Assembly: GCA_977862235.1 (NCBI GenBank)
Contig: OZ374557.1
Span: 3,658,001 to 3,722,000 of the forward strand
Direction of reading: 5' to 3'
DNA length: 64,000 bases
Source: Dudresnaya verticillata
Taxonomy: Eukaryota
Shown here: positions 1 to 39,669 of the stretch, piece after piece
Position numbering within the stretch: position 1 is the first letter of the stretch
How the letters are laid out: each line of letters opens with the position of its first letter
Notes under the pieces: generated by a model
Seen by the model: only the letters and a program-made list of their open reading frames with translations
What the model was told of the DNA's origin: nothing
The model's database searches: none
Made by a program: the position numbers and the translations under genes

Positions 1-393
1 AGGGCGCTATCAGCAAGAGCGCTATACCGTTCCGGAATGATTAGGTGGAGGCAGCGACCATCTCAGCGACGCGTCCAGCTCACCCCATCCGAGCCGGAGG
101 ACCAGTCGAGGTCGGCATAAACGAGATACCGGACACTCCTGCTCTGACCCGCCCCGTCGGTCGCACATGGGCGACCACACCCAGCGACAACACCACCAAT
201 CCGGTATGGAATCCAATGAGAGCAGCTCAGAGGATAGCCAACACCGCCGCCGCAAGAGGAGAAACAGAACATCGCGGAAACACGAAAAAGGCATGACTCC
301 TCTACCTCTACGGATTCAGACTCAGAGAGTTCTTCCGTTACGGATAGAGATAACAGGCACCGGGCCAGAAAACACGGTTCCAAATCCGGAAAG

Positions 394-1794
394 GTGAAGG
401 TAATCCGGCCGCTACATGACAAGTTTGTCAAGGCGCTGGACTACCGCACCTACCGATTGGATAAGAGGGGTAAGACGCACGGCTCTAAGTTCTCACAGAA
501 CATGAGCCGTATACGGAAGAAACTCGACGTCCAGATGTTGTCCCATACATTCAATGGGATGGACCCTATTACCGTCTTGGGATTTCTCGCCAAGTTCCGT
601 GACGGTTGTAACATCAACGGCATCGCCGAAGGGGTTGCCGTCCGGTGCTTCCAGTTTTTCCTTAAAGGACAGGCCGAAGCCCTTCTACAGGCTAGGCTTG
701 CTGGAGGTACCATGGTGGTTGACGTGGAGCAGGCTGAGATGCTCCGCACATATTCCGAGGTGGTGAACTTTTTATTGAGAACCTACGCTACGGATGAAGT
801 GATTGCTGAAGCCTATAAGTATGTCAGCAACTTCAGGCAAACATCCGCCATGACGGAAGAGCAGTTCTCGAACCAGCTCTGGGCCAAGGCTCTCCGTTGC
901 GGTACAGTATTTTCCGATCGGGCATTGAAGTCACTGGTCATTGAAGGACTCCTACCGGGCACTCGTCAACAGATGAGAAACTATCTGGCGACGCATTCCC
1001 AGCTGGATTATCAGGCCATCACTCGCTATGCGACTGGCCTGGGTCAGTCCCATCGGGCAGCTCGACGCCAAACCGTTCCGGCTCACGTCTTTGATGGGCG
1101 CCCTAAAGCACGCCCGTCTAAGGTGTTATCGCTGGCTTCCGTCTCGGATGTACACTATGATCCGCAAGCAGATCCTTCCGTTACGGATGCTCAAGTCTTA
1201 GCTATTGAGGGAGGCCACGGTGCCGCTACGGGAACGAGCACGGGGTTACCTTTTCAACCCCGTACTCTTCACCCCCGTAAAGCGTCCACCCTACGCCGCC
1301 CAGGATGCCACGCGCGCAAGGTCCCCCCTATGGTGGATCTCGCCCGGCTCCTGGCCTCCAACAGCAGCCGAGTCACCGTTACGGAAATAATGCCCACGAT
1401 GGGCGAGGACAGCAGCAACCAGCCCCTCCGCTACGGGATGAGTCGGATCCTCGGGTCCGACGCCTTTACGGAAGTTGCAATTGCCGCATCTGCCTTTCCG
1501 CCGAACATGTTGTTTGACCGTGGATAAACGACGCCGATCGGGTTAAGCTCATGTAACAGCGTGAGCGCAACTTCCAGAGGCACTACCCTGTAGGCCGCAG
1601 GTTTGTCGTCGGAACCAGTTCGAATCCGCAAGGGAATCAGGGCAAGCCGCAAACGCCCCCTCCGCAACGGAATGCCCCGATATTATCGGTGGAGGACCAT
1701 GACGGAGTGGAATAAGTGGAATTGTGCGAGCCCATGGAGGCGGATCCGACTGGTGCACCCTTGATTTCGGAAACCTCAAGGGGGGGACACATAA
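394..1794 (+). pseudogene. gag: Gag of element A (frameshifted)
   Basis: ORF 394-1527 aligns with B gag (KALDYRTYRL vs KALDFRTYRL; VVNFLLRTYATDEVI); the Zn-knuckle-like CRICLSAEH lies in a shifted frame. Confidence 0.85.
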
Positions 1795-4203
1795 GGGCGC
1801 CGCCATCCCCGCCCCACGGCGTTCCACCTCTCGTGAGTGTGGACTCGCCCAGGGATCGGCTAGATACCGTTATGGAACTCCCATTGGCTTTTCAGACCAA
1901 TGATCCTATATGTGTTATGCAACAACAACATTATAGGATTCAAATTACCGTGGGACAGAGAGATAGCGTGATGCTTCTTATAATCTCCGTATTGGAATCT
2001 GGCGCGGGGCCAAATCTCATTAGTGCCAGGCGACTTCCCCGTCAATGGCTACCTCTCATTCGCCCCACCACCAGTCCTCCGCTACGGGATGCATCTAGTC
2101 GCGCTATCCGCCCCTTGGTCAAATTCAACTTTTCGTCCGCATCGGAGAGCTCCGTGCTCGCGTCCATTTTCTAGTGGTCGCGAACTTAGCTGCTCCGTGT
2201 ATCTTGGGGACTACCTTCATCGACCGCTATGTGAAGGCAATCCTCCCTCCGTTACGGAAAGTTGTTTTTCATCATTACCCACCGGTATCCCTTGTTGGTC
2301 AAGCCAAAATTCCGAAGACGGGTTCCGCCGCAACCGTACAGCCCTCATCTTTATCTACCGCTACGGTTTCTCAGAAAATTCGTTTAGCCAGATCTACCCT
2401 TATTCTCCCTATGACTCAAACCTCCGTAACTGTTAATTCCCCACGGGTGGGTTATGCTTTCTACAAAATCATCCTAAGCCGGCTTTTAAGCACCTTACGT
2501 TAATGGCTAATGGTATTATGGATGTTGTACCTAACAAACCGTTTCGGATTTGGGGCTCTAATTTTTCTAACAAGCCGATACGGTTGCCCAAATCTACTGT
2601 CGTGGGCCTCGCTACTGCTGCCCCTTTTGCTATTTTTACCGTTGACGGTATACCTCCATTTAAGGAGGGGGGAGGAATTATTCAATCATTTAATTCTAAC
2701 CCTACCTCCGAAAAGGCCAGCAGCATCTCCCCTCACGACAATGAAGTAAGCAAACCCGTAACGGAAAATACAAATACTACCGACTGGAAAGAACAAGTCC
2801 AGATCGGTACAGAAGAAGCATCGCTCCGTAAACGGATTTTAACCCTACTCGAGGAATATAAGTCGATGTGGAGTGGCGATCTTGGCAACATTACAGCTGC
2901 CAAGCACCGCATCGAGTTAACTCCCGGAGCTAAGCCAGTATATCAAGCCCCATACCGTGCCGGACATAAGCAGCGAGATCTCGAAAAGACAGAGATCGAT
3001 CGCATGCTTTCCGCTAAGGTAATTGAACCAGCCTCATCGGAGTGGGCCAGCCCCGTGGTTTTCGTTCCAGAAAAGGACGGCACCATGCGGTTCTGTGTTG
3101 ACTATAGAAGGCTCAATTCCGTAACGGTTAGGGACTCATATCCCTTGCCCAGGATGGATGAGTGCATAGATTCCCTTGGGGAAGCTACTGTATTTACCAC
3201 CCTGGATTGCAATAGCGGATATTGGCAAGTCGAGATTCCGGAAGAGGAAAGGGACAAAACTACCTTCACTAGCCATTTTGGATCATACCGTTTTCGGAGA
3301 ATGCCATTCGGATTGAAAAATGCACCGGCAAGCTTCCAACGGGCAGTTGATATAATCCTTTCTACGGTTAAATAGCAATTTTCCCTCGTCTACCTAGACG
3401 ATGTAATTGTCTACTCAAAAACCGTTACGGAACATTTCCACCACTTGAAGGAAGTCCTTATGCTTTTACGATCGGCTGGGGTAACGTTGAAATTGTCAAA
3501 GTGTGACTTCTTCAACGCGTCTGAATAATACCTGGGGCATGTTATCCGTCCCGGAAAATTAGAAGTGGATAATCGGAATATCCAATCCGTTAAGGTCGCG
3601 AAGCCGCCGACTAACCAAACGGAATTGCGATCCTTCTTGGGAATGTGCAACGTGTATCGTCGCTTTGTACCCAACTTCGCTCGGATTTCAGCACCGCTGA
3701 ATAAGAAAACCGGCAAGGGCTCACCCTTTGAGTTTGGAATATTATCCGATACGGAATACGAAGCCTTCGAGGAACTGAAGAGACGCCTTATCTCTCCATC
3801 TATATTGGCTCTAACCCGTCACGGATATAAAGATACGTTGGACACTGACGCATGTGACCATCAAGTCGGCTGTGTCCTTCTGCAGGAACAACCGAATGGC
3901 GATCACCTCCCTATTGGATACTGGAGCCGAAGCCTCACAGATGCGGAGAAACATTATACTACAACCGAAAAGGAATGCTTAGCTGTGGTCTGGAGCATGT
4001 TGACACTCCGACCCTACCTTTACGGTGACAAGTTTATTCTCCGAACGGATCACGATGCCCTGCGGTGGATCCTGAACCTCGCAGACTCATCTGGCCACCT
4101 AGCCAGGTGGAGGCTCCGCCTATCGGAATTTGAATTTGAAGTGCAATACCGTCCTGGAATTAAGCATCAACTCGCCGATGGTATGTCGCGACTCCGAACG
4201 GAT
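1716..4203 (+). pseudogene. pol: Pol of element A (PR-RT-RNase H) with frameshifts and premature TAG at 3373-3375
   Basis: ORFs 1716-2174, 2174-2503, 2503-3375, 3565-4254; the TAG replaces the W of VKWQF seen in B. Confidence 0.92.
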
Positions 4204-4204
4204 T

Positions 4205-6277
4205 ACAGACGCCGGTGGGTTAATCAACAGCAAGCGGTTCCCGAATCGGCGTGAGGAGATGTGGAGAGCCAAGTGGATTCACTCAAACTGTAGAGTGCGA
4301 ACTCCAACCGGGTGTGATATCGTGTGGTTGAGATGCCAGGAAGAAGAAGACTATCCCGATAAGGTGTGTCGATTGTTGGCCATGGCCCATCGACTGCGAG
4401 ATCATCCGGTTGGTGTCGATTTCCTGTGCTACGAGAAGCCGTATGACCAAGGGGTCCACTGGTTTGGGAATCCGCAACGATGGGCTGACGACGCAGCAAA
4501 AGAGCATCGACTCCGGTTGCGGAGTAGAGATGGAGGCCGCCTCGAAAGGGCGATACTCCACACTTGGAACACCAACGAATTCTTCCAGGTGCCGCCGGGG
4601 GCGCATCGTCGCTTGTACTGCACCGCTCCGGATTGGTGGGCTGAGTATGAAGTCACCCGTTGGTTGTCAGTGCCAACGCCGACGGTGGTGGCGTACTTCT
4701 CCAATCGGTTCATTCAGCATCGTTACTGGCGAGCTGCACACCCAGACGGAGAGAAGTCAGTCGACCATCCGCTAATGACGGTGTTGGGTCGGATACTCCA
4801 AGCGGAATGGGCCATGTTAGTCCTCTTCTCCTGGTTACAGGTCACCTACAGGGGTGTAAGAGCTAATACCAAGATGACCGACTGGAGGGCGTACCCACGG
4901 AGCAGAACGGATCCGGAAGGTGGCGAGTGCGGGCGCATATTGAAGCTACCAGGGCCGTTGGTTACCCTTATACACCAAGTTGGAGTAGACCGGTTGGTTG
5001 AGGGGACCGAATACCCCTTGGCGCGTGTGGAACGCCTTTTCGCGGTTCACGCAGACAACAATTGGGAGCGAACGCCAGGGTTCATCGGTTATCATTGTAA
5101 TGACGACCGCGTGTTGTCGGTGCCGCCTCTAAACTCCGGGTGTGGTATGGCGTATTTCCTATCGGAAGAAGACCCCGAGCCGGCGTGGTTGATCGACGAG
5201 AAGATGTCAAACTGGCACGCGATGCGCTCCCGCTCGAGATTCTACCCCATGACGGAGGGGCCATCAAGGGCTCCGCTGTCACGCGAGTGGGGTACTCCAT
5301 CCGGTATGCCGCATCAACAGGGACGCCTCGACAGTCCGCCTGCTGACGAGATTACACCGATGGGGGTTGAAAAGATTGAGAAGGTGCACGGGGACCCAAG
5401 GGTCCTCGTGCCAAGAGAATCCCCTGGTGGAGACGCCATAAAGGTGTGAGGCGACCGCACGACTGCGTCGCCCAAGAAGACCGTAACGGAGTCTCCTCCT
5501 GTAGGAGCGGAGATCGAGACGCAGGGGGGTTTGTCGGGGGTGGCTGCAGCATCCACACCAATCGGGGCTTCGAAACACGTTGTCCCGCCGGAGATCAACA
5601 AGAACATCAACTTGGACAAGGCGGCTAATACCGTAGCGGTAGTTTGTCAGAAGCCTACGGTAGTAGCTGCAGCCGTGGCTAAGTTGGGCCCCGTCGGGGA
5701 ACACGAAGACTCCGAAATGGAATAGGACGCTACACCGGTGGGGACCGACCAAGTGGAGGCACTCGCGACCACACGGCCTGGAGTAGCCGTGAAGACCCCT
5801 GCACCGAAGCGGGGTGAAGTTGCCAAACCGGTGTCGCCCGCGTCGAGTGACTCCGTGACGTTTGTGGCCGCTGCGGGTCCAGGTGGAGGGCCACCCCGTC
5901 ATATCGACCCCGTGGTGGTGAAACAAGAAGAGGATGCCCCGAAGGAGATGCCGAGTTGGACCGAAGCGGAGTTGCGCGTAGATGGGGCTGCCCTGCAGCG
6001 ACTCCGCGAAGGGTGTAGAGATGCGGGCATGCCACTTCCAGTGTCGGCGAACGAAGCCATTAACACCGCCGTGCTGTGGGTCGGGCGTCTGGTGCGCCTA
6101 CGGCGTACCATTCGCGCTTTGCGTCGACGCATGGCAGACACCGGCAGGAGACTCACCATGATTACCGCAAGGGTGTACGATGAAGATATTCCAGACTTGG
6201 AGGAGAGTGCGGCAAAAGAGGAGGAGACGGAGGCTGACCTGGCGCCACCAGCGAAGCGTCCACGAAATGCAGTGTAA
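4205..6277 (+). pseudogene. Antisense extra ORF of element B (~690 codons, two in-frame stops), unknown nuclear protein
   Basis: ORFs 4130-5449, 5531-5725 and 5738-6277 share one frame, separated by TGA (5447) and TAG (5723); Trp-rich N-part, low-complexity linker, helical C-part ending PPAKRPRNAV. Confidence 0.7.
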
Positions 6278-6466
6278 GCGTAGAAATGCCACTTGTCAAT
6301 AAAATCTTGTGATTTGTGTGAGCCCCCTTCCGCTGGCGGAGGGGAAGTGAGATAACACCACTGTGGAGAGATTCTTGAAGTGGAGGGGCTACCCTGCCCC
6401 ACAGAAGGCTTTGCGTCCGGTTGACGACCACCTATTACCAGAAATGGTTGCGCGCTTGCCGTCGAT

Positions 6467-6624
6467 TCACCAATATGGAGTAGAGCCCCTTGGGCAAGGG
6501 TTCTGGGATTCCAGAGTCCAGAGGTCATGCCCGTTTTGTACCAGCGCCAAGTCACCAATACGGAGTAGACCCCCTTGGGCAAGGGTTCTGTGAACACGGA
6601 GTCCACGGGTCATGCCCGATTTTG
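6467..6624. repeat. Imperfect ~85-bp direct repeat (2 copies) with hairpin, in the 3' region of B
   Basis: tcaccaata(t/c)ggagtaga(g/c)ccccttgggcaagggttctg...gtcatgcccg at 6467 and 6552. Confidence 0.8.
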
Positions 6625-6658
6625 CCAAACCCCTACTGCGTGGGTGAGTAGCGACTGG

Positions 6659-9600
6659 CTATCGACGCGTGGGAGCTCTGCGACGTCGAACTGCAGCGGC
6701 TGCCGTGCGCTTTCTATTCCAATAGCGGTGTATGAAGTTTTGTCGCAACTCCTCAGCGGGTTCATACGTGTCCTGGTCTGGTGGGTAGCCATACCAACGC
6801 ACCTTGTAGGTCATACCCGTGGGTTCTTCGCGGTGTCCCACGATCTGCTCGATGACATACTCCGTGTCGGCATCAATTGTTTCCGGCACGGGGGCAGAAA
6901 TACCGCCTGGCGTTTGGGGCGTTACAGTAATACCACCTGGTGTTTGGGGTACTACTGTGATGTCTCCCGCCTGCTGGGATACTGTACCGTCCATGTCGGT
7001 GTGTGGCGTAACCGGCGGAGCCCATAGCGGCACCGGTTGCACGGGAACTCCAATTGGTACCTTAGTGATGCGATCGATGCTGATGGGAATCAGGACGCCA
7101 TCCTTCTTGATAGTGACTACAGTATCCGTTGCGGTGTGCACGTCGTAGGGGCCCGTCGATCTTGGGAGGAGCTTCTTCATTTGCTCCGCAAATTCACCGA
7201 CGTGGTCAGGGCCTGGACCCAATCGGTCGCGTTCCTTCCGTTCGGTGGGCCGTAGATTACGCGGCGGGCGATCTACGTAGACCTCATCGCCACCGCGAAC
7301 CACCGGTCGGAAGCGCACCTTACGGTCGAATAGGGCCTTGGAATTCAACTGGGCTGTAGTCTGTTTGGTCTGCGCCTTCTGTAGGGCGTAACGCAAACGC
7401 CGCATGGTTCCCCGCTTTTGGAGTACGGGCGTCATACGCCCCTCCGTAACGGTTTCTTCCAACTCCACAGGGGTGCCACGCACAATAATATCCGATGGGT
7501 GTCGAATTAACACCAAGTCAAAAGGAGTAGTATCCGTGATCCGGTGTACCTGAATATTGTAGGAGTAGGTTAACGGCTGTAGATATAAATCCCAATCGGT
7601 GTGGTGATCCTCGACGTAGTGTCGGAGGCGCTGCGCTATGGTTGTGTTAAACCGCTCGGCCTGCCCGTTGGTTTGCGGGTGATAGGCAGCGGTCAGCAAA
7701 TGTCGCACTCCGAGTAGGGCACAGACAGCGTCAAAGAACTTCGCCGTGAACTGTCTTCCATTGTCGGTGAGTACAAATTTAGGTGCGCCTACGCATACAC
7801 CCAATGGTCTAAAAATGCGTTCGCCACCACGACGGCTGTAATCGTCCGTAACGGAATGCACCGTGTTAGCTTAGAAAACCGATCTGTGATGACCAGTACA
7901 AAGACGTATCCCCGTTTGGTTTTCGGCAGCGGGCCCAATATGTCCGTAGCGACAAACTCGGGCCACTCGCGGGAAATAGCTTCAAGAACTTCTGATGCTT
8001 AAACCGCGTGCCCTTGGTTTTGACACATGAGCGGCAACTCCGAACGGTCTCGAATACATCGTTAGCCATATGTGGCCAATAGTAGTCTCTCCGTAAGGTG
8101 TAGTACATCTTAATTCCACCAGGGTGTCCCGACATCAAGGTGTAGTGGGCAAGATGCAGGACCCTGCCGCGCATCTGTTGCGGTATCACCTTTTGGAGTG
8201 CGCCGTCGAGGCCAGACTTGCGCACAAGAAACCCATGTCGGTCGTAGTCAAATTGTGATCCAGGGGATCCCACCGATTCGGCTTTAAGCTTGCAGAAAGT
8301 ATCTGTTGCTTGCGCGGCTATGAACTCCTCACGGGTAAGGGTCTCATTGCGCATATCCTCTTGTTGGATGACTGTTTGCTGGAGTGGAGTGGGTGGTACT
8401 GTATCCTTTTCAGGCGTAGTATCCGTTTCGGTGTCTCCACTTTCAACGCCTAGGACAAGGCTGCTTGCGGCATCAGGCTGCTGGGTCTGTTTCCAATTGG
8501 TTAATCGCACACCATGTTGCACTACACCATTAGGAGTCGATTCCATAACGAAGCAAGGCACTTCCTCCTCCAACTCAGCTTTGCCAACACCACCTGTTCG
8601 GAGTCTCGACATACCGTCTGCGAGTTGGTGCTTGATACCAGGGCGGTATTGTACTTCGAGCTCAAATTCCGATAGGCGTAGCATCTTGCTAAGCGTCCAG
8701 ACGCATCGGCTAGACTCAATATCCAGCGTAATGCGTCGTGATCCGTACGGAGTATAAACTTTTCACCGTAAAGATAGGGGCGTAGCGTTAGCATACTCCA
8801 AACGACAGCAAGGCACTCCTTTTCAGTGGTTGTATAGTTCTTCTCCGCATCGGTTAGACTTCGGCTCCAGTAACCCACTGGTAGATTATCTCCACTAGGT
8901 TGCTCCTGGAGAAGGACACACTCAACTTGGTAATCACAAGCGTCGGTATCCAACGTATAATTGAAACCGTGACGGGGTAAAGCCAATATTGGAGGGGAGA
9001 TTAAGTGTCTCTTTAGCTCCTCAAAGGCGTTAAACTCCGTTTCGGTGAGAGTTCCAAACTCGAATACCAGACCCTTGCCGGTTTTCTTATTGAGTGGCGA
9101 AGCAATACGTGCGAAATTGGGAACGAAGCGTCGATAGACGTTACATAATCCTAGAAAAGAGCGCAACTCCGTTTGGTTTGTAGGTGGCTTAGCCTCCTTA
9201 ACGGCGAGAATATTCTTCCGTTCCACTTCCAGTTGGCCCGGGCGCACTATGTGGCCCAGATACTGTACGGAAGTGTCGAAGAAGGCATACTTTGATAATT
9301 TCAGCGTTACGCCTGCGGAACGGAGTAGCGTGAGGACCTCCTTAAGGTGTTCGAAATGCTCCGTGACGGTGTTAGAATATACAATCACATCATCCAGGTA
9401 GACTAAGGAAAATTGCCATTTCACCGTAGATAGGATGATGTCAACCGCCCGTTGGAAAGTAGCCGGTGCGTTCTTGAGCCCAAAAGGCATTCTCCGGAAG
9501 CGGTATAATCCATAATGACTGGTGAAGGTAGTTTTGTCACGCTCCTCCTCGGGGATCTCTACTTGCCAGTAGCCACTATTACAATCCAGAGTGGTGAATA

Positions 9601-11049
9601 CTGTAGCTTCTCCAAGGGAGTCGATACATTCATCCATCCGGGGTAAAGGGTATGAATCCCGAACGGTGACAGCGTTAAGACGCCTGTAATCGACACAAAA
9701 CCGCATGGAGCCGTCCTTTTTAGGAACGAAGACCACAGGGCTGGCCCACTCCGAAGCGGATGGCTCGATCACCTTGGCGGACAACATACGATCCACTTCT
9801 GCCTTCCCCAGCTCGCGCTGTTTATGTCCTGCTCGATATGGTGCTCGATACACCGGTTTGGCACCAGGCATTAATTCGATACGGTGTTTCGCGGCAGTTA
9901 TATTTCCTAACTCGCCGTTCCACATAGTGCTGAACTCCTCGAGGAGTGTAACCACCTTAGCGCGGAGTTTTTCATCCTTGGCACCAATATGGATGTTATC
10001 TTTCCAATCGGTGTCAGGGGTTGTAGTTGATTCCGATACGGTGTTTCCTTTGAATACATCTTGGGGTGTAGCCTTGCTGCTTTCATGAGGAGGAGTAGGA
10101 AAGGAATTAATATGTCCTCCCCCTCCTTAAATGGAGGTACACCGTTAACGGTGAGTATGCCATAGGGAGCCGCAGTAGCGAGGCCCAGGACGGTAGACTT
10201 TGGCAACCGCACCGATTTGGGGGAAAAATTAGTCAGCCACACCTCAAAGGGCTTGTTAGGGATTATATCCATAACTCCATTAGCCATAAGGGTGAGGTGC
10301 TTATGGATGGGTTTGGGATGGTTTTGAAGAAAACACAAACCACCGGTAGGAGTGGTGACCAATGCAAGGGATTGGGTCATAGGGGGGATAATAAGGGATT
10401 TTGCTAGTCGGAGCTTTTGCGATACCGAAGCGGATGACACAGGGGGGCCCTGAAGGGTAGAAGCAGCCACCGTTTTGGAGTGTCTGGTTTGTCCCATTAG
10501 CGAAACCGGAGAGTGGTGATGAAAAACAACTTTCCGTGCCGGTGGGAGGATCGCCTTGACATGATGATCAATGAAACTGGTTCCCAGAATACACGGAGCA
10601 GCGAGGTTCACGCCCACCAGGAAGTGGACTCGAGTACGCAATTCTCCGATACGGACAAAAAGTTGAATGACACCAAGAGGGCGTATCGACCTATTGGACG
10701 CATCCCGTAAAGGTGGACTGGCAGCGGGGCGATTCAACGACAACCAGTGGCATGGAAGCCGTCTGGCGTTAATGAGATTTGGCCCAGCACCAGAATCCAA
10801 TACGGTGATGAGAGGCAACATGAGATCATTGCTCCTTCCCACGGTAATCTGGATTCTATAATTCTGCCGTTGTAGAACACAGACAGAATCACCGGGTGGT
10901 GGAAATTCAAGGGGGATTTCTGGAACAAAATCAAGGGGGTACTCCGTAATGGTGGCGGACTGACAGTACGGCAAAGCCCGTATTGGTGGGCGTATTACGT
11001 CGCATTGAGGAGACGGGGACGCCCTTACACGTCTCCTGCGACGTTTTCC
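6659..11049 (-). pseudogene. pol: Pol of element B: PR-RT-RNase H-integrase-chromodomain, several frameshifts
   Basis: ORFs 9907-10974, 8522-9955, 7866-8684, 6659-7861; chromodomain EYVIEQIVGH...YKVRWYGY...DTYEP. Confidence 0.95.
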
Positions 11050-13618
11050 GAGTCGGGGTGCGCCATAAGTGCCTCCTCCACCATATCAGCGGGGGGCTCG
11101 CCAACCGCACCACCATCGACAGTCAGCACCCGTGCGGGGCGTTTCTGGTAGTTGCCCGGCGGACGATTTACCGTATTGGAGTTGGCGAAAGCCTGTCGCT
11201 TGAGGAGGATCGCTTGATAGTTGCGCTCGCGCTCTTCCATCAGGGGACCCCTTTCGGTGTCGCTCAGATACGGACAAATTACATGGTCCGGGGAGAGGCA
11301 CAAGCGACAGTAGCCACTTCCATAGAGGCGTCTGACATCCGGTGAGGTGTGATCCGTATGCTCTGCGGCAGAGGATTGTTTTCCAATACGGTGTTCGCCC
11401 TGCCCTTGACGGGGAGGCGTGTTGCCGTGGAAGTGTCCAATATGGCTGGGATGGTGCCCAGTGGTTCCCTGACGGTGTGTGGCGGGGCCGTAGCGGATAT
11501 CAGCCGGTCCGTAGCGGGGTTGCCGGGGTGGAGGCATCCGTGGCGCTGGTGCGCGAAGGTTGGGAGTCCGAGGCGGAGTAGGGTAGACACTACTCGGTGG
11601 GGAAGAGTACGCGGTAGTAAACGTAACCCCCGACGAAGTGCCGGCGCTTCGACCCGCACCACCTTCCAGGACGAGCACGTGCTCCTCCGATTCAGCGGGA
11701 TACTCCGAGTAGGTATAATCCGATGGAGAGCCAATCGACAGAACGCCAGAGCGTCGTGACTGACTCTTCGGTTTTCCGTCGAAGACGTGCACGGCTGAGG
11801 TTTGGCGTCTGGTTGCCCGATGGGATTCTCCAAGCCCTTTAGCGTAGCTGGTGATGGCTTGGTAATCCATGTGGGGGTGTGTTGCCAGATAATTGCGCAT
11901 CTGCTGACACGTTCCTGGTAGGAGTCATTCCACAAACAGCGACTTGAGGGACCTGTCGGAGAATACTGTACCGCATCGGAGTGCCTTAGTCCAAAGTTGG
12001 TTGGAGAATTACTCTTCCGTTAAGGCCGACGTTTGTCGAAACGACGTTACGTCCGAATACCCTTCGTCAATCACCTCATCGGTAGCATAAGTCCTTAGCA
12101 AAAAGTTCACCACTTCGGTATAGGTGCGAAGCATCTCTGCTTGCTCCTCGTCGACCGCCATGGTACCACCAGCGAGACGGGCCTGAAGCAAAGCTTCAGC
12201 CTGTCCACTCAAGAAAAACTGGAAACACCACAGTGCGGTTCCTTCCGAAATGGAGTTGATGTTACACGCATCCTTGAACTTCGCGAGAAATCCAAGGACC
12301 GTGATGGGGTCTGTACCGTTGAAGGAGTGGGGCTTCATTTGCACCTCCAGCTTTTTGCGGATACGTCCCATATTTTGGGACAAGCTAGAGCTGTAGTATG
12401 AACTCTTTTTCTCCAGTCGGTATGTTCGGAAATCCAGCGCCTTCACGACCCTGTCATTCAGGGGCCGGATCACCTTTGGGAGTGGCCTGTCGACCTCTCG
12501 GTGTTTGGCGTCGTGTTTTCTGACCCGACGCCGCTCGTCCCTATCCGTATCGGAGTAGCTCGTATCAGAGCCAGAGGAATGGGAGGAGTCATGTCCTTTT
12601 CGTCGCCTATGGCGCGACTTGCGCTTATTCTTCTTCCTATTGCATTGCAGTGTTGGCTATCATTAGATTCCGTACCGGAGTGTTCTTTATCCCGTCGCGA
12701 AGCGCGTTTGCTCCGTTGCGAACGGTCACGTTCCTTATCGGAGTGGGAGTCCTTGGCCTTTCTGTCAGCACTGTCTCTACCACTCCGGTCTTGGTTTTTC
12801 TTGGAGTCACCATTGGAGTGCTCACTGCCTCTACGCGAAGCCACCGCCACGGTGATACGTTCCCCCGCAGGCACTTCTGCGGGTCCAGGGACCGTACTCC
12901 GATTCGGTTGGGGTTGGTGTGTTGGATACAATTCGGTGTATTGAGTTTGGGTAGGTAACCCAGGGGCTGCCACTGTCCTTACCGGATCGGGCGGAAACAC
13001 CTGAGTGGGGATTTCTGGCATATACGTCGTTTCTCCCTTGACCGGGAAGTTATTCCGTATCGGTGTAGGTCCAGAAAAGGGCTGCTCCTTGGGTCCCGGT
13101 AGGGGTTGTCCGGGGATGAGCATCTGCTCGATCTCCGACGCCTGACGCTCCTGACGGATGAGCGTCTCTACCAACTCCGGAAGGTGTTTCTCCAGGTAGG
13201 AGCTAACAATGACCGGAACGGTGTCGGCGAGCGTGGTCTCAACCTCCTTGACCATGTTGGGTTGCACCTCTATACGGAGATGCTCCAACACCCGTGGGAT
13301 GACCTCCGAAAGTATCCAATGGACACGATTGGAGTCACCTGGCTTGGATACACCCTTGCGGGAAGTGTCTGAACCAGGTCGGGATCTAGCGAGCTTACTG
13401 TCTACACCTTTAAGGAGTTCTTCGGGGTTCTCCATACCGGGGTTCAGGTCGGCAGCATCGCCACGGCGTGTTCTCGTGGCTGAGGCTACCTCCCGTTCGG
13501 TGGGCTCACTGCGGCGTGTTCTCGCAGTAGAGGGCACCTCCGGGACGGTTTTATCGTCACCGCGGCGTGTTCTCGCGGTTGACGGCACCTCACCTTGATC
13601 CGATACGGTAGGGTCCAT
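11025..13618 (-). pseudogene. gag: Gag of element B (frameshift and stop)
   Basis: ORFs 12470-13618, 12009-12473, 11025-11900; CRLCLSPDHVICP knuckle; N-terminal EVPSTARTRR repeats. Confidence 0.88.
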
Positions 13619-13757
13619 GTGTTCTTCTATTCTTAGGTTACCAAAACGGAGTCAACGAGTGTTTGCCTTGTCCTGCCTTTACACCAATACGGAGTTGTCA
13701 CGAAGCTGATCTCCTACCGAAGCGGAGCCCAACGGAGATTCTTCTACCTTCACGGCC

Positions 13758-13775
13758 TTCTAGGTCGGGAGACCA
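13758..13775 (-). promoter_or_regulatory. Primer binding site of B (tRNA 3' end, probably tRNA-Tyr)
   Basis: Minus strand TGGTCTCCCGACCTAGAA, 6 nt from the LTR; identical to the PBS of C. Confidence 0.85.
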
Positions 13776-13781
13776 AAAAGA

Positions 13782-14453
13782 TGTGGTGAAATGAAAGGCA
13801 CACCTGTAAGGAGAGCTGATCAGGCAATCCCAATAAGGAGTGATCTCACACGGCACCGGGGTGGTAGAGCTTAGTTCGTAGACCGAAGGGAGTACCTCGA
13901 GCGGCAAAAACTGTAAGGAGTAAAGGAACGCAACAGGCAAGGGGACGGTACAGTGCCAGGGCAGCTACACCGGGACGGAGGTAAGAGGAATCCGTTCACG
14001 GGGCTGGCGATGGGAAACCGTAAAGGAGTATGAGGGTAAGGCTTAGGGTAAGTCACTTTGCCCAGGGTTGCGTACCCGTTTACTGTAGGACTCGCGGTGG
14101 CCACCCATTAATATACTGGGAGATACGCCCCGCGGTCCGGTCCGTGTGTGCCAGACCAATGGGTCTGGGCCACCAGGTGGGTCCGGCCCTACTGGTCCCG
14201 GTCACCGTTGCAGACATGCTCGGCATTCTCATTGGCCGGCTGACACTACGTACTGTACAGCATCATTACAATTACCTAATTACAAATAAATCAACTACTT
14301 GGCTCCTATTGGTGGTGCGCGCAGACTCCAGCAAGGCGTACAGTGCTACTGTGTCGCTGCACTCCCGTTCGATATTTGGCGCCAGCTCATCGGTGCGCCG
14401 GTCGCGAGTCGGCTCAACCGTCGTCGGCACTCCACAACGGCCGCCTCACCACA
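13782..14453 (-). repeat. 5' LTR of element B (672 bp)
   Basis: 8-bp inverted termini tgtggtga/tcaccaca; adjacent to the PBS; sharp switch to D-family LTR sequence at 14454. Confidence 0.85.
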
Positions 14454-15660: not shown

Positions 15661-16303
15661 TGTAGTAGTATGGCACGTCAAGGCAGAAACCCGCCAACCG
15701 GCAAGGACAGCTGTCCTGACGGTGCACAACACAATAGCTTAGGTAGCTCGGGAAAAGGGGTTGGTAGAGTCTTTGAAAGGCACAGAGCCTAAGGGAAAAG
15801 GGGAAAAGGGGCGGCGCCACCCAGCTCGCACAGAGCAACCGTCGTGTGAAGGCAAGGCTCGTAAAGCACCTGAAAGGGAGCTTACGTTGAGTCCGTGAAT
15901 TCCAGAAAAAGGGTAAAGACCCGAAACCCACCGGGGGTCTATTCAGGAGGCCCCTGCTACTCAGGGGCCTATTAAGTATACAGAGCCGAAAATGCTCTTA
16001 CCTCCTATGAGCTATTCTAAGCTATTCTAACTGTCATTATTAATCTAATTGTACTGTTGTCAGTTATAAATACGGATTAGTGGTAGTACCGCGTCGGGAC
16101 GCGTGAGCGGCCACAATAAATTACCCAATGGCAATTTGCTATCAATTTTGGTGCCAGCAGGGACGCAAGCGGGGCGCATCGCCCTTACAGCGCACGGTGC
16201 TTGTGCGCGCCTTACAACTTGATGCGCGTGGGCGTCTTACACCTTAATGCGCACAAATGACTTACAGTGCGCTAGCACTCCTGCTGCGGCTCATTCTTCC
16301 ACA
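15661..16303 (-). repeat. 3' LTR of element C
   Basis: Direct repeat of 29241-29883; about 5 substitutions seen by eye. Confidence 0.97.
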
Positions 16304-16314
16304 CGGCCCCCTCG
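16304..16314 (-). promoter_or_regulatory. Polypurine tract of C
   Basis: Minus strand CGAGGGGGCCG immediately before the 3' LTR. Confidence 0.6.
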
Positions 16315-16366
16315 TTAAGGCTGAGAGACCCGCGAAGCCAGCAAGGCTGTTTCTATTGGCCCCGTC

Positions 16367-19099
16367 TTGGGCGAGCTTGAAATCCCAGTGGATTATTGGG
16401 CCAACGGTTCACTTGTAACCGCCGCCACTGGCGGCCGGTGTGGAACCGTTCGCAGTAGTGACAAATCACTGGCTTCGCCGTCCCGGTCTCGGCGGCGACC
16501 GTCTGACTATTCCGACGACCAGTGTGCATTTTCGCGCAGAAAGCCCGAACCGGCTGCATACTTCAGCGACTTCACAGCGGCTTCCGCTACAGTTCTCTGT
16601 GCACATCCCACTTCGCACCACCATCTCCAACGCCTCCACGCTGTGGTCCGGCAACCCATCTAGGTTCGCGTACTGCTTCCGTTGCGGCGGTCTGCGGACA
16701 TTACAGTAGCGGGACCCGCTGTACCCTGTCGCCACCCGTGCACCTCTTCCTACGGCCGGGCCGTCACGTGCGCAGTAGCCAAGAATAGCCACTGTGGCTG
16801 GATAGAAGACCTGTTCACCCCGTGGTACCAAGATGAGCCATAGCCACATGGCTTATGGGGCCGCTGGCTCAAGCACCGGTGTGCTGGGCATTGAAGTGGA
16901 TGAGGAAAGAGTGCCTTTCACGGTCAAGGAGAGCCGCGACTGGCGGGTGCGCACCGACCTCGCGCACCTCAAAGCGCGGGCGGGCGCTGATCGCACCGAC
17001 ATTCTTCGACATGGAGCGCGGCAGGCGCAGCGCCGCACTTGTAATTCCCATGCTCGAGCGCGTCTGGCGCTGCTAACCGGCATGACCCGTCGCCTGCCCG
17101 CCCTTACGGGTCCGTGGCAGTGGGACTTAGCGCACCCGCGCTTCCGCCACGAGGTGCGCTACACAGCCACCTTGTGTAATAAGCTCAACTATGAGCTGGA
17201 GCAGATCCAACACGTGCACGATATGGGTGAGTTCGACCTCGGGATGGTGGCGCATGAGCGCCTGCTGATCCGCAGCGGCAGGGACAACTACCCTTACACC
17301 ACGGCTCGGGTCGTCCGTTGGGACGAGACGTCCAATTTCAAGTTTTCCATGGACAACCCACAAACGGCTATGCCTTCCGATATCATATGCTTTGAGCGTC
17401 GGAATCGTCACCGCACCGGTTGTCTCGTCCCAGGACACTGTCAAGAGGTTACCTCTATTCGCCCGGATTTCTATAGGATCAAATACCCTCAAGTGGCGGG
17501 CGATCACGCCGAGATGGAGGTATCCTATTCCATGCCCGTCGGTACACCAACCATCATAGCGTACCTAGGCTTGGAGATGATGGAACCAACGCAGACGATA
17601 GAGTCTTATGGTCCATCTTTCGTCATGAGTGGATCGTGCTAGTGACGCAAGTAGTCGTCTACGAAGCCCTTCGGGGCTTGTTATACTTCATCAGCGCCCA
17701 GCTTCGTGGGGCCATCCGTTCTATAGGCTCTGCTGCCTTCACCGCCAACTCGGCCGACGCCTCAGACTTGGACCAACCCTTGGTCTTTGTTGAGCGTATT
17801 CGCTGGAGCGGCGTTTCGAAACGCAATAGGCATCTGCCTGAGAACACCGGGCACCTGACGCCGGTGTCGACCGCGGCGATTGGGTTGACTTCGACGCCGT
17901 CAAGTGGCATCCAGCTGGATGAGGGCGAGCGCCGCACTGGTTACAACAAGGGTTGGATGAGTGTGCGTTGGCGCGATGAAGGGCCTAAGCACCCTGCTGA
18001 GGTGCCCCCTTCGACGATACTGTCGATGGGGAGCCGCAGGGTCCATACGCTCCAGTGCTGACACACCACAACCGGGCTGATGCCGAGATCCGTGATCTAT
18101 TTGGCCGCCGTGGGTTGGCGATCCGCCTTGCTGCCCATTGAGGCATCTACTCCCTCAACCTTAACAATCTAGTCTAGCTGAATGGGTCGAGGATGCGCTA
18201 GCCGAGTATGAGGCTCATTGGATAGGAACTCCAGGTCCGGTTGACCGCCTTTTGACTCACCTGAATAAGTTGCCCCCGCTGGGCGGAATCAAGGCTGAAG
18301 GTGAGCCTGGAGTGGAAATCAAGAAAGAGCCTGGCTCTAAGGTTGCCGCGGCATCGGCTATGGTAAGCCAGGTTCTTCAGCCCAAGGCTCTTTAGCGCTC
18401 CTTCCGATTATCGACGCGAGGGAAGCCACCGCGGCTGATGTGTCAAAGGTCCCGCGTGAGAAACCCCTTGCCACGGCTGGTGCTAACGCGTCCAACATCG
18501 CTCCGCGAGTCACGGCGCCTCCTTCCCAGCCATCGGCTTCTCTAGTTGGAGTCCCACTCCGCTCCGTGGTTCCACGCCAGATTTCTACCGTTAGCGGCGC
18601 GCCCGCTGGGAATAACCCACAGTCGGCGTCAGCATCGGCTAACCGCCCCACTGCCGAGGTGGCTGTTGGGCCCCCCTCAGGGCCGCCCCCTTCGGCTGCA
18701 TCTGGCACAGCACCTGCCTCACTCGAGACGCCTGCTAAGTCTTTGACTGGTGATTCTCCCCAAGTGGAGGAGAGGGCATCTACGCCGCTGGCTCCCGGTC
18801 AAGGCGATGAGGCTTTGCAGCCTACCGACGAAGTGCTCGTGAAAACTGAGTTGGTGCTCAAGGAAGAGGAGGAGTTGGCTCCTGTGGAGGGCGATGTTGC
18901 GCCGATGGATGTGGACCCGACGACAGCCAACGAGGCTCAAGGAACGACAATGGAGGGTACTCGCCGGGGCCGTGGACCGCGTCGTGGCCAGGGTCGGCGG
19001 ATCACACGCGAGGTGCGCCGCATCGTGACGATGCGGGCGCCTTCTGCACCTAACCCGCCCCTTGGCGATGACGAGGTCATTGACCTCCTTTCGGATTAA
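16367..19099 (+). pseudogene. Antisense extra ORF of element C (fragmented), unknown nuclear protein
   Basis: Consecutive plus-strand ORFs 16367-16663, 16833-17642, 17636-18061, 18440-19099; ends RRGRGPRRGQGRR...DDEVIDLLSD. Confidence 0.65.
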
Positions 19100-20155
19100 C
19101 CGAGTCGAGCCCTCGTCTTGAGGCATGCCTCGAGACATCGAGCCTGATAGGGGCTAGAAGCCCTTTCCGGCGGCTTAACCGTTTAGCAATAAACTTCGTC
19201 TTGTATGCGTAGCCCACTGCTTTGGTAGGCTTCGAGCCTTCACATCCGGTGCCACTCTTCTTCCTAGTGAGACAGTGGTGCCTTTGCTTGTTCAAGCAGC
19301 GTGGGACGACCTATTATTGGTTGACCAATACGCCTCTCTAGCGTCTGTCGCTGCCTGAGAGCGTGCCAGCAATGCCCACAGTAGCTCTACAGTTCAATGC
19401 GACGCACTGTAGCGTATTTTGGCGCGAAAGCCGTTATGGCTGTTAATTGGTCACATCACTCCGCCACCTTGCTGTAGCCTTTCTAGCAACTCACGGACTG
19501 TGCCCATCGCCACAACCAAGAGGTATTAGTCAGCGGCATCGGCTTCTTCGACCGCGTGGCTTCCAGAATTCTCAACGTCAATACGCTTGGCGCTTTCTCC
19601 TCCCCTATCAATGGGGTCTTACGCGGTTCCAAACGTCCTCCCCAGCAGATGGGGGAGTCGGAGTATCAAGACTCACCAGTCTAGGATGGGGCGTATTTGT
19701 GCCTTACACCATCACTGGGTTTGACGCGAACGCCGTTTTTGTGGGAGATAGTTGGATCAACCTCGGGCTAATGTCCAGTCCATATTGTAGCGTATCGCTT
19801 TTGGGCAGTCCAGCCGCCCTCAAGCGTCATAGTGCTGGTAGTTATAATTGCAATAAATTATCAGTTGGCCATCGCCGCTGTTCCTTGCCCGCGCCGAGGA
19901 GAGAGTGGTCGCCATAGCTTTTGCCTTTTCAGGATTGAGTCCTTGGGGTAGCCATGTTCCGGCCACTCTGCCTAACAATAGCCTCTGTGCTCGAGGTTGG
20001 CCTCAACCTGAATCTGGCCTTGAGCCAGGTTGATAACCTTATGCATAGCGTTAGTCGCTGTACACAGGTGCGCCTCTAACGTAGGATCAACTCCTAGCTC
20101 TGAAGCGCCCGCTCGCTTTGGCGAGACTCATCTTGCAGAGTTCACCTCTTGATTA

Positions 20156-20287
20156 CATCTATCCATTTCCATGCTTCCATCCAGGATCCAATCCTTCTAA
20201 CATCTATCCATGATATACATCTATCCAGAGTCTTGACTCTTCTTTCATCTATCCATTTCCACATCTATCCAGAGTCTTGACTCTTCT
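20156..20287. repeat. CATCTATCCA micro-array (5 copies) in the 3' region of C
   Basis: Copies at 20156, 20201, 20218, 20246, 20262; two extend as gagtcttgactcttct. Confidence 0.8.
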
Positions 20288-20564
20288 GCAGCCATCGACA
20301 TTGGTTCATCTTCTTGAGAGGCTAAACCCCTACTTCCGGGTTCGGTAATCGGCGAATGCCGTCCTTAGCTCATAGGCTGCGTTCGTATTTGCGCGAGGAC
20401 GTCGGCTTCGGAATCCAGAACCAAGTTCTACCTCAACTCATATGAGGTGAGTCTAGCAGTCGGGAGATCCGACTCCAAACAGCCTAACTGCTGTTTTGGT
20501 TTGGTGCGCCCGCTTGAGACCACTCATAGGCCCGGTGCCTTACTCAACGCGCGTGTTCGCCTCG

Positions 20565-23500
20565 CTAATTATCAGGGAAAGGTATCCCTTTTTGGCGGAG
20601 ATACCTTGCAACTAAATTATGAGGGAGATGCCCTTTTGGTTCCCATGTGTCCTTTGAGGCTGGGCTCTGGAACCAACGCACACGATAGAGGTGTGTGTCG
20701 GGGTTATAGGAAACGATCCTTTCGTACACGTGTTCGCGTGGTGGTGCCTTCTCGAAGCGCGAGAATTTGCGGTTTGACGTCCCTTCAGCCACTGTCGGCG
20801 GAGGTGATGACGCGTCCACACCCTCATCTCTAGGAGCATTCTCCTGTCGTTGGGGAACAACAGGCGCAGTATGGGCGCCGCTAGGTTGCGCATCCCCATC
20901 TGTGTCAGCCATTGTCTCGCCTTCAGCACCAGGTGCTTCGGGAGGTGCCGGTTCATTACCGCTTGATGCGGTGTTCATCTGGGGCCCAGTGCCGTTTGTG
21001 TTGGGCCCGTAGGTTGGCCCAGTTGGGCTACTCGAAGGTGCTGCACCTGTCTCCGGTGGCATTTCCACTACCGGGGGAGTCATGTCTAGTGCCAGCGGCG
21101 CTTCGTGTGGCGATGGAGCCAAAATGACTCGGTCCAAAGAGATTGTTTCTCTGTCGCCCTTGATGCCGAGAACCACCACATGGGTTCCTCTCTCGAGGAC
21201 CTTATATGGCCCAAGGGCTTTCGGGAACAGTTTCCCTGCCCTCGCCACGCCTGAAGCGTCCTTCACTTTGGGTTCCCGTTCGAGGAATACCCACGACCCA
21301 GGACGTACCCTTTGGTTAGCCGGTCGAATGCGGCTATTAAAGTTGGTTTCATAGCGCCTTTGCGCTAGTTGCATCCTCGGCAGAGCCGTATCCATGAGCT
21401 TTTCCAGCCGAGCGGTTAGGCGCTTCTTGACGTTCGTAACGGGTATCCCGTCAAGGTCTACCGTTTCCGCTTGTTCCAGTAGTAGGGAAGTCGGCGGATT
21501 TGACAAAACCAAGTCAAAAGGGGCTAACCCTGTAGCGCGATGCACTGTCGTATTGTAAGCGTACGTGAGCGCTGAGGTGAACTCGTCCCAGTCCCTCTGG
21601 TCTTCCGCTATGAAGTGGCGAAGGCCCGCTAGGATGGTGCGGTTGAACCTCTCGGTTTGCCCATTAGTTTGGGGATGGTATGTCGACGTGAACATATTCC
21701 GAATCCGTAGGATATCGCACACGGCGAGGAAGAACTTAGAGGCAAATTGAGACCCATTGCCTGAAAGGACGTAACGGGGCGGTCCATAGATAAAGACCCA
21801 ATGGTCACAAAACGCCTTCGCCACTGTATAGGCGGTTACCGTTTTCATCGGTATTGCTCGCGTCAGCTTCGAGAAGCGGTCCGTCATAACCAACAGGAAC
21901 TCGTTTCCTTTCCCGGAGCGGGGTAATGGGCCCAGGATATCGATTCCTACGAACTCTAACGGCATGGTTGCCGGGAAGAGTTTCATATGCGAATCTTGTT
22001 TCCGCAACTTCACCCGCTCTTGTGCGCATTTGACACAATTACGCACGGTGGAGTATACATCCAATGCCATCTCTGGCCAATATACCTGTCTTCGCAGGTT
22101 ATGATACATCCGGGTTCCACCTGGGTGTCCCGCCATCTCGGGGTAGTGGGCTAGGTGTAACGCCCTTTCTTTAAGAGAACGAGGTATGAGAACCTGTATC
22201 GCCTTGTCGATATACGACTTCCGGACTAGGAGTCCTCGTTCGTCCTCGATATAGCAACCAGGCTTCCCGGCCTCGAGGTTCCTTCGGACCCAGATACAGA
22301 ATTCACCTGTTTTCTGCTCACGGAGCAACTCTTCTGTGGTGATGAGGGATAGTCCCTTTTGTCCAGATTCCTTCTCGGCCACTTGGGCGATGAACATTTC
22401 GTCATCCGAATCGGACTCATCGACGGGTTCGATTTCCCACGCTTCCAACGGTCGCGTGTTGGGCTCCGGTCGCGACCTTTCGCAGGGTTCGTCCCTCGGA
22501 TCAGTCTCGAGGATTAGACACGGGATATCCAGGTCCGGTTCCCATGGCGTGAAGCCATACGTGGGCAGCCGAGATACGGCATCAGCAATCTTATTCTTTT
22601 TGCCTTTTCGGTACTGGACCGTGAAGTCGTATTCCAGGAGGCGTAATCTCCAACGGGCCAACCGTCCAGAAGCATCTGTCATGCTCATCATCCATTTCAG
22701 CGCTTGATGGTCTGTATACAGGTCAAAGTGGGACCTTTCTAAATATGGTCTGAGCAATTGTGCCGCCCAGACCACTGCGAGGCACTCCTTTTCGCCTACA
22801 GAATAATTCTTCTCTGCCTTAGTCAGTCCTCGGCTCCAGAAGCCTATCGGGTGTCGAGTCCCGTCTTCTTCGGCTTGCATCAGCGCGCAACCAATATGGT
22901 AGTCGCACGCGTCGGTATCTACCGATAGGGCCTTACCCTCTTGTGGCAACCTAAGAATAGGAGGCGCTATTAGCGCTGTCTTCAGCAAGCCGAACACCTC
23001 GCGCTGACGTTCATTGAACTGTGGCAGTTCAAAGCCCACTTCCTTCTGAAGGAGGGCATTGAGCGGAGCTGCCACGCGAGCGAAGTTAGGCACGAATCGA
23101 CTGTAGACGTTGCATAGACCGATGAAAGACCGCAACTGGATCTGGGTGGTCGGCTCCTTGAAGCCTTCGATGGCTTGCGTATTCTTAGTCGCCACTTCTA
23201 ATAAACCCGGACGGATGACGTGCCCTAAGTAGTCGACACTCTTTGTGAAGAAGTTACACTTCTTAAGTTTCAAGGAGACCCCTGCTTCTTGTAATACAGA
23301 GAGAATCTCTCTTACATGCGTGACATGCTCGTCGACGGTCGCGGAGAATACGATAATATCGTCGAGGTATACGAGGCATGATTTCCATCGAAATCCTGAT
23401 AAGAGGATGTCGACCGTTCGCTGAAAGGTCGCCGGAGCGTTGCATAGCCCAAAGGGCATCCTGCAGAATTGGAAGCAGCCCGCGTGGCATGTAAAAGCAG

Positions 23501-25095: not shown

Positions 25096-25101
25096 TTTTT
25101 T
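25095..25101 (-). promoter_or_regulatory. -1 ribosomal frameshift slippery site A AAA AAC at the gag stop of C
   Basis: GCA AAA AAC TAG; the -1 frame runs LARGEPVSVHHISQ into the protease ORF; a GGGGGG..CCGGT/ACCGG..CCCCCC stem follows. Confidence 0.8.
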
Positions 25102-29221: not shown

Positions 29222-29239
29222 TTCTAGGTCGGGAGACCA
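29222..29239 (-). promoter_or_regulatory. Primer binding site of C (tRNA-Tyr-like)
   Basis: TGGTCTCCCGACCTAGAA, 1 nt from the 5' LTR. Confidence 0.88.
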
Positions 29240-29240
29240 C

Positions 29241-29883: not shown

Positions 29884-30166
29884 GATGGGTGAGGGGGGGT
29901 GCTTGGTACGGTTCGGTAAGGGGTGGGAGTCGTACAGTAGGTGGTCCTGGTATATGCTCGTACTCGCCGAAATGGGCGTTTTAGCCGGAGCTGATAGATG
30001 TGAGCCCGGGAATGCCAAATATGACATTAGAAATACAGAATTTTGGCACCTTTATTTGCCCGCACTGATAGAGATGCTCTTAAAGAACAACGTTTCTCCA
30101 CATCCATGGCCTGACAAGTCCTCTCACCCGACCCCGCCTTCATACTAAATCGAGTTCAGGGGGGTA

Positions 30167-39551: not shown

Positions 39552-39669
39552 AGTTGGCAATGCAGGACAGCAAGAGTGCCATCAGGCAATGCAGGACAGC
39601 AAGAGTGGCTGATGCAGGACAGCAAGTGTGAGTGCCTGATGGCACTCTTGCTGTCCTGCATTGCCAACT
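39552..39669. repeat. Fold-back element: 37-bp perfect inverted arms around tandem ATGCAGGACAGCAAG copies
   Basis: agttggcaatgcaggacagcaagagtgccatcaggca ... tgcctgatggcactcttgctgtcctgcattgccaact. Confidence 0.9.

Follow-up and report, generated by a model that had tools for sequence, protein, structure and literature searches.

Does a retrotransposon write recognition sites for one of its own proteins through the genes that it carries? The question is raised by a 64,000-nt window of the genome of Dudresnaya verticillata (assembly GCA_977862235.1, contig OZ374557.1, positions 3,658,001 to 3,722,000), which holds three Gypsy retrotransposons, designated A (1..4203, + strand), B (about 4204..14400, - strand) and C (15661..29885, - strand), beside host genes and a tandem array. 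An original prediction, made from the letters alone, held that a nine-base palindrome, CCGTNACGG, is written throughout A and B as a self-recognition motif, and that a family-specific dimeric DNA-binding protein, best sought in the product of an antisense open reading frame (ORF), reads it and so marks the elements for anti-silencing, activation or packaging. The signal is a real, strong and family-specific sequence motif, and it is larger than first reported. Element C, full-length and with long terminal repeats (LTRs) that are 99% identical, served as the control for the A/B motif. All counts of the A/B motif given here are counts within this window, and not genome-wide claims.

A degenerate palindrome in elements A and B

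Exact copies of CCGTNACGG number 14 in the window, nine in element A and five in element B, all of them correctly located by the original prediction; none lies elsewhere in the 64 kb, and hence none in C or in the host genes. Over 100 dinucleotide shuffles the mean count is 1.0 and the maximum 4, such that the excess, first set against about 0.2 expected under uniform base composition, is upheld. The variants that had been named are also present: CCGCTACGG and CCGATACGG seven times each, CCGTATACGG and CCGTTAACGG once each, and CCGTTATGG twice, with one of its two copies in element C. A further claim, that TGG/CCA variants arose by C>T decay, fails in the form of symmetric CpG decay, given that the two deamination products disagree in B (CCA-N3-CGG, 20 vs 8.1 expected; CTG-N3-CGG, 2 vs 7.2).

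The nine-mer is a subset of a broader degenerate palindrome, W-CC-R-N3-Y-GG-W, the core of which, CCG-N3-CGG, emerged from an unbiased scan of spaced trimer pairs. This core occurs at 65 sites in A and B together, vs 7.6 expected. By region, with expectations from trimer counts, there are 25 sites vs 2.4 in A, 40 vs 5.2 in B and 12 vs 5.6 in C, and the four sites in 20.4 kb of host DNA (5.8 expected) represent background, as does the count in one unit of the tandem array. In the wider consensus, T is favored after the triplets and A before them. Element B also permits spacers one base shorter or longer, with a GG partner at a gap of 4, 5 or 6 for 36, 67 and 22 of 142 half-sites, where about nine are expected. 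In A, half-sites that lack a partner are no more frequent than expected (29 vs 30.5).

Coding constraint and the distribution of sites

The motif had been said to lie within coding sequence in differing frames, and all three codon phases are indeed used, for example in TVTE, PLRK and TRHG, with one phase in the majority. The codon-shuffled control that had been proposed for it gives a clear result: in the in-frame coding segments, CCG-N3-CGG exceeds all 1000 synonymous shuffles, none of which reaches the observed count in A (17 vs 2.5) or in B (23 vs 5.1). The coding segments of C contain six copies vs 3.6, a count reached in 130 of 1000 shuffles and therefore not significant. When 45,056 spaced trimer pairs are ranked against synonymous shuffles, CCG-3-CGG comes first in A and in B separately, with z scores of 10.5 and 7.6 and a null maximum of about 4.3. 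At places where the amino acids permit the motif via two wobble bases, A uses it in 7 of 12 cases when 1.2 would be expected, and B in 19 of 37 when 3.6 would be; C, with 2 of 23, stays close to its expectation of 1.8.

The sites also extend beyond the coding DNA. Scanned with a position weight matrix (PWM), all parts of A and B show 7-11 sites per kb, the antisense ORF, the 3' spacer and the probable LTR among them, and the 129-nt leader shows 15 per kb; the range in C and host DNA is 0-1.2. A matrix derived from A sites only still finds 3.2-8.5 sites per kb in regions of B that largely lack a counterpart in A, vs 0.8 in host DNA. Spacing between 79 sites is more even than random (coefficient of variation 0.70 vs 0.98, P 0.0004), a pattern that was picked after the data had been viewed. 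Periodicity at the nucleosome scale or at 10.5 bp was considered and rejected, with no period found, including none at 100-255 bp. In short, the A/B motif is restricted to one family within the window and is unexplained by coding.

A putative dimer site in double-stranded DNA

An RNA hairpin was considered for the A/B sites and rejected. The arms rarely pair in folded RNA, with a mean pairing probability of 0.17-0.18, and they do not covary: of the 65 sites, 19 have complementary flanks (24 expected) and 19 have complementary inner positions (21 expected). Counted on the B sense strand, there are 17 G.T and 17 A.C variants. Because the halves vary independently, G.T and A.C are at parity and folding is poor, the A/B site is best taken as one that a dimer would bind in double-stranded DNA. 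The shape of a putative dimer site is likewise supported by paired half-sites at a fixed spacing with arms that do not covary. On the sense strand the central base leans to T, with 34 sites vs 14 for A (uncorrected P 0.0055), a bias that weakens to 34 vs 23 in a wider site set.

Turnover and flank divergence between A and B

Elements A and B are sisters on reverse transcriptase (RT) trees. Their alignable DNA is 74% identical, and their proteins are 91% (RT), 82% (RNase H) and 72% (Gag) identical. The original caveat that sites may be shared through this homology holds only in part: alignable blocks contain 15 A sites, of which 7 recur as sites in B and 8 do not, together with 2 sites confined to B, and just two exact nine-mer pairs are orthologous. 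The retention of 7 of 15 A sites exceeds a background of 16-17% (P 0.007), which reads as conservation with turnover.

The sister elements have the same core and a different flank. The dinucleotide AC at -3/-2, or GT opposite, is found at 0 of 25 A sites and 23 of 40 B sites (P 4.6e-7), and the difference persists when only the part of B that is homologous to A is considered (10 of 15 B sites vs 0 of 25, P 3.5e-6). The flank type is W-W-T in A, with an additional T after CCG, and A-C-W in B. Since these are sister families in one genome, the differing flanks fit an element-encoded reader better than a single host factor, although they could also stem from different ages or from horizontal transfer.

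The antisense accessory ORF

The candidate reader of the motif is an ORF that runs antisense to the genes of B (4259..5449, + strand). It contains a conserved domain of about 290 aa, and its start was probably lost at the A/B junction; a low-complexity continuation in the same frame, broken by stops, follows at 5450..6277 (+ strand). By hidden Markov model (HMM), element C has a homologous antisense ORF, in two frames, at 16806..18061 (+ strand). A profile seeded with three relatives only matches the ORF of B (E 1.6e-7) and that of C (E 4.8e-4), both before their inclusion, and extends to about 30 loci after iteration. Homologues number 107 among 50%-identity representatives by unfiltered HMMER and 133 by profile search, the best named match to the B protein being a hypothetical protein of Gracilariopsis chorda, PXF39757.1, which makes a red-algal host probable. 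Two counts of relatives among viral contigs gave 0 and 1, and 43 distant Gypsy loci yielded no member of the antisense ORF family.

Homologues that look intact have 550-1160 aa and consist of the conserved core of about 290 aa with low-complexity tails, which form coiled coils in 3 of 51 scanned. The ratio of nonsynonymous to synonymous substitution rates (dN/dS) is below 1 in 12 of 12 pairs (0.19-0.97), which were picked by hand and are not independent. Judging from these comparisons, the antisense ORF is a genuine conserved accessory gene under purifying selection in relatives, and its product is a fair candidate for the reader of the motif.

Palindromic signatures in element C and its relatives

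Element C, which is more distant from A and B than these are from each other, has a signature of its own that the original prediction overlooked: mini inverted repeats of 13-14 bp of the form AG-xy..y'x'-CT. Perfect 4-bp inverted repeats AG...CT occur 46 times vs 3.4 at a span of 13 and 40 times vs 3.4 at a span of 14, and 38 times vs 3.2 in comparison with synonymous shuffles. Between 16300 and 29240 there are about 125 perfect mini inverted repeats, most of them 13-14 bp long, one per 100-150 bases and symmetric with respect to strand. Covariation is seen at the inner pairs (55 and 60 of 79, vs 22 expected), the stems stop at fixed ends and do not extend outward, and neither G.U forms nor forms with one mismatch are enriched.

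An excess of 4-bp stems (z of at least 5) is seen in 54 of 81 related loci, which are copies of roughly ten families. Each related family has its own span profile, and these profiles follow the RT tree. In a second set, of which 54 of 78 loci were scanned after short or redundant ones had been dropped, the excess is present in 11 of 11 close relatives and is little or absent in 41 of 43 distant Gypsy loci. Fixed stem ends take forms such as CT..AG at a span of 12 (L082, L084) or CG..CG at spans of 12-14 (L083, L088), and the stems of L082, L083 and L084, like those of C, stop at the fixed dinucleotide without extending outward. One locus, L007:145-14395, has a hybrid signature, in which a CCGA[CG]TCGG core with the same CCG-N3-CGG frame as in A/B is centered in longer complementary arms. 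The lineage, in short, repeatedly writes palindromic signatures into its genes.

None of 35 representative relatives has a fixed motif to equal the A/B one in strength, and the L001/L015 and L021 groups are without any signature. A preference for GNRA, UNCG or GNA loops was considered for the relatives and rejected. As side observations, the contigs of the related chromoviruses L082, L084, L083 and L088 were binned into a bacterial metagenome-assembled genome and look like eukaryotic contamination, and seven loci (L001, L015, L019, L021, L024, L027 and L039) combine an antisense ORF with the lack of both motif and inverted-repeat excess in gag-pol, and so provide a natural negative control.

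Proposed mechanism and alternative explanations

The reading preferred here is that the degenerate palindrome provides sites for a dimeric protein of the element family that binds double-stranded DNA, with the antisense product as its most likely identity; taken as a whole, it stands close to evenly balanced, leaning a little to the side of doubt. That the reader is encoded by the element is probable; that it is the antisense protein is a tentative identification, slightly short of an even chance; and that its purpose is anti-silencing, by analogy the likeliest one, is doubtful yet a real possibility. A family-encoded dimer would coat its element, over which the sites are spread evenly at about 10 per kb, LTR and leader included, and selection would keep the sites through the choice of synonymous codons. 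Reader and motif would change together as families split, such that each family would mark itself alone. The most plausible effect of the coating would be to fend off host silencing or to keep the chromatin of the element open. According to the available part of a review, methylation in G. chorda is mostly non-CG and H3K27me3 marks repeats in Cyanidioschyzon (PMC8566409). The family-specific dimeric reader of the original prediction gains from the family restriction, the failure of coding to explain the motif, the dimer-like form and the A/B flank difference, and gains nothing from CpG content with regard to anti-silencing.

A number of observations weigh against the preferred reading. A/B, C and host DNA all show an observed-to-expected CpG ratio of 1.0, and there is therefore no trace of CG-methylation decay that would need countering. 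The covarying arms in C and most relatives cannot be accounted for by a simple sequence reader, and the lean to a central T, a weak point, would not be predicted for a fully symmetric one. The antisense protein matches no Pfam family, with PF04195 absent from 23 + 100 aligned members, and it has no sequence match in the PDB. It has no net positive charge (K+R 41, D+E 41). An alignment-based model of a relative is of low confidence, with a mean predicted local distance difference test score (pLDDT) of 53, and a single-sequence model reaches 31. With the low-confidence model, Foldseek gave no match at E 0.001 and VIA-align gave only generic helical bundles (best Z 7.5 over 69 residues); the protein atlas held no usable match. 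The L001/L015 and L021 groups have the antisense ORF but neither the motif nor an inverted-repeat excess in gag-pol, and the antisense ORF of A itself is absent from the window. The original choice of the antisense ORF is therefore borne out as regards a real conserved gene, with its homologues and dN/dS, and is weakened by the ORF carriers that have no motif and by the lack of Pfam or fold support.

An unlikely alternative is that another protein of the element, Gag or integrase, reads the dispersed sites on complementary DNA (cDNA) or RNA during packaging, particle assembly or formation of the integration complex. Family specificity and flank divergence suit any element-encoded reader, even end-to-end coverage suits packaging, C and its relatives bear 4-bp stems with fixed closing pairs, the weak sense-strand bias at the motif center is in keeping with it, and the antisense-ORF carriers without a motif speak against an obligatory tie to that ORF. 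The A/B sites, however, do not fold, their flanks do not covary and G.T equals A.C in B; C lacks a G.U excess, no strand-specific loop is seen in C or in L082/L084, and the Gag and RT of A and B are as similar as noted above. Distinctly unlikely, too, is an origin without selection on binding, in which a mutational or repair bias peculiar to the family writes palindromes or protects them, by RT template switching or by the protection of bound DNA, as was once proposed for HIP1. Templated mutation would produce perfect arms that covary, as in C and relatives, and would leave forms with one mismatch unenriched, as in C, and both the turnover of A/B sites and the agreement of the signatures with the RT tree are consistent with it. 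The A/B half-sites, on the other hand, vary independently and hence were not templated from one another, the sites are under-dispersed and kept above background, the stems of C, L082, L083 and L084 end at a fixed dinucleotide, and a protection model still requires a sequence-specific binder. Mutational writing or protection suits C better than it suits A/B.

Transposons commonly exploit host factors, and the sites might have evolved for a host transcription or chromatin factor that secures expression, such as a Myb or zinc-cluster protein; this is quite improbable. The Myb core is AACGG, and the zinc-cluster site is an everted CCG-N-CGG. The sequence CCGTAACGG contains TAACGG, and 10 of the 14 exact sites are of the CCGTAACGG type, yet a TAA/TTA center is present at only 10 of 65 core sites. 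The Myb core was rejected as the whole motif, given that YAACGG outside the motif reaches 1.33 per kb in A/B, no more than the 1.62 per kb of C. Host genes in the window are not enriched, the flanks of A and B differ, and integrase and RT coding DNA has as high a density of sites as the LTR, all of which argue against a host factor. That the motif is a side effect of amino-acid composition, codon usage or homology between A and B, or of a pattern picked post hoc, is extremely improbable. A single codon phase is shared by 19 of 23 B coding sites (one B segment of that set was out of frame), B pol is somewhat rich in the tetrapeptide that allows the motif (24 vs 13), and seven sites are common to A and B by descent; the synonymous shuffles, the top rank in the scan of all pairs and the performance in B of the A-trained PWM largely refute this account.

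If the preferred reading, of a dimeric reader encoded by the element, is widened to the lineage, then red-algal chromoviruses would share a system of self-recognition in which each family writes a palindromic barcode every 100-200 bases by means of synonymous codons, as a sequence motif in A/B and as 4-bp inverted repeats with fixed ends in C and several other families, and a fast-diverging antisense protein from a family not yet described reads it on DNA and shields or activates its own family. Such a system, a counterpart of VANC in retrotransposons that evolved independently, is a speculative possibility.

Anatomy of the elements and other features of the window

Elements A and B abut tail to tail. 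Element A is a gag-protease-RT-RNase H fragment with stops and frameshifts that ends after RNase H (Pfam RVT_1, RT_RNaseH), and B is truncated at its 3' end at the junction with A. Element B has the gene order gag, RT-RNase H, integrase and C-terminal chromodomain, that of a chromodomain Ty3/Gypsy element. Next to the antisense ORF, a non-coding spacer separates it from pol and contains a two-copy 78-nt repeat (6460..6622) with one high-scoring motif site per unit (6470, 6555). The integrase, with zinc finger and core, and the chromodomain follow at 6659..8762 (- strand; PF17921, PF00665 and PF00385, the last with E 4.7e-12); this region is frameshifted and has 7 motif sites per kb. The protease region and RT-RNase H (8522..11085, - strand) have about 10 sites per kb, with RT-RNase H recognized by Pfam and the protease, which has no Pfam match, labeled by reading frame. 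The gag gene, matched by tblastn to the gag of A and C, and an upstream ORF (together 12009..13651, - strand) have 11 sites per kb and include a 40-nt repeat in three copies (13458-13596).

Element B retains only one probable LTR alongside a primer-binding site (13758..13775, - strand) that is the same as that of C at 18 of 18 nt. This probable 5' LTR (13782..14400, - strand) is assigned by its position beside the primer-binding site, is present in a single copy with an outer edge that is not fixed, and has about 8 motif sites per kb by PWM scan. The ORF upstream of gag, which is unannotated, is present in B (12470-13651) and C (28080-28736) and has no match in the 81 related loci searched. 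Beyond B, a 438-bp fragment at 14454-14891 is 92-94% identical to the C leader, in the opposite orientation.

The host genes at 33663-49397 encode a metallo-beta-lactamase fold protein, a sulfotransferase-like protein, MAPEG, FKBP, TAF9 and signal peptide peptidase, and a calmodulin-like gene was identified by eye at 35.2-35.8 kb. The most enriched spaced palindrome in host DNA (30000-53900) is TACAGTA/TACTGTA, or TAC-N-GTA, with 12 copies vs 2.8 expected, and is possibly a host regulatory motif. The tandem array at 50300-64000 has a 3622-bp unit in about four copies of 99% identity, with four ORFs (131-196 aa) that have no Pfam match.

Significance

Sequence-specific self-recognition is well documented for VANDAL DNA transposons, and the function of antisense ORFs in LTR retrotransposons is described as an open question in the accessible text of PMC11963269. 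In the present elements a protein family that may act as reader coincides with a family-specific sequence that may be its target, such that the question can be tested by one binding experiment. A layer of motifs kept within RT and integrase coding DNA would show that selection at the level of the element shapes synonymous sites, and a reader that opens chromatin would offer a compact, retargetable tool for red algae. The open-access literature, outside of which lie most subscription papers and supplements, yielded no account of the A/B motif, the inverted-repeat signatures or the antisense family; even if the cause is mutational, family-specific writing of palindromes is unreported in the literature searched.

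Comparison with known systems

The HIP1 palindrome of cyanobacteria, GCGATCGC, is likewise in excess in coding as well as non-coding DNA, is kept among relatives and spaced non-randomly, and has given rise to the same debate of selection versus repair bias, as far as the consulted portions of PMC5861425 and PMC13756078 describe it. HIP1, however, is bacterial, genome-wide, contiguous and a methyltransferase target, whereas the A/B motif is spaced, degenerate and restricted to one transposon family in the window. The packaging signals of single-stranded RNA viruses such as MS2, STNV and HBV resemble the A/B sites in that many degenerate motifs run through a coding genome and are read by a cognate protein (PMC5699041 and PMC6281560, in part). 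Those signals are RNA stem-loops, unlike the A/B sites, which show no folding and almost no strand asymmetry. A closer resemblance to packaging signals is offered by the mini inverted repeats of C, but these are without G.U tolerance or loop asymmetry.

Among LTR retrotransposons, Retand elements provide the closest arrangement of genes. In the available text of PMC11963269, their antisense TRP28 ORFs (PF04195) are predicted to bind DNA, lie between pol and the 3' LTR, are conserved across families and have short repeats nearby; that text reports no dispersed motif in coding sequence. Retand belongs to a non-chromovirus lineage of flowering plants, unlike B, which has a chromodomain and an ORF without a match to TRP28 or Pfam.

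The closest likeness in kind is to the VANC/VANDAL system of Arabidopsis, in which a short motif has piled up in one family, related families differ in their motif and an accessory gene resides on the element. As set out in the portion of PMC5735166 that was available, the motifs of VANC are 8-9 bp non-palindromic words located in non-coding tandem repeats, they vary from family to family, and VANC binds them both in vitro and in vivo; VANC itself is described as dicot-specific and MAIN-like (PMC13547354, in part). The A/B motif, in contrast, is a spaced palindrome that is mostly single and runs through coding DNA. It is not concentrated in tandem repeats, given that its coding density of 7-11 per kb equals that of spacer and LTR and only two small repeats hold sites. 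VANDAL is a Mutator-like DNA transposon, whereas B is an LTR retrotransposon with RT, RNase H, integrase and chromodomain, and no sequence link to VANC was found for the antisense protein. By class of transposon, by sites in coding DNA and by the lack of detected homology, the A/B system would thus not be a member of VANC/VANDAL. VANC and the TRP28 of Retand are nonetheless precedents and therefore count in favor of an element-encoded reader, and by analogy the A/B system likely works as VANC/VANDAL does.

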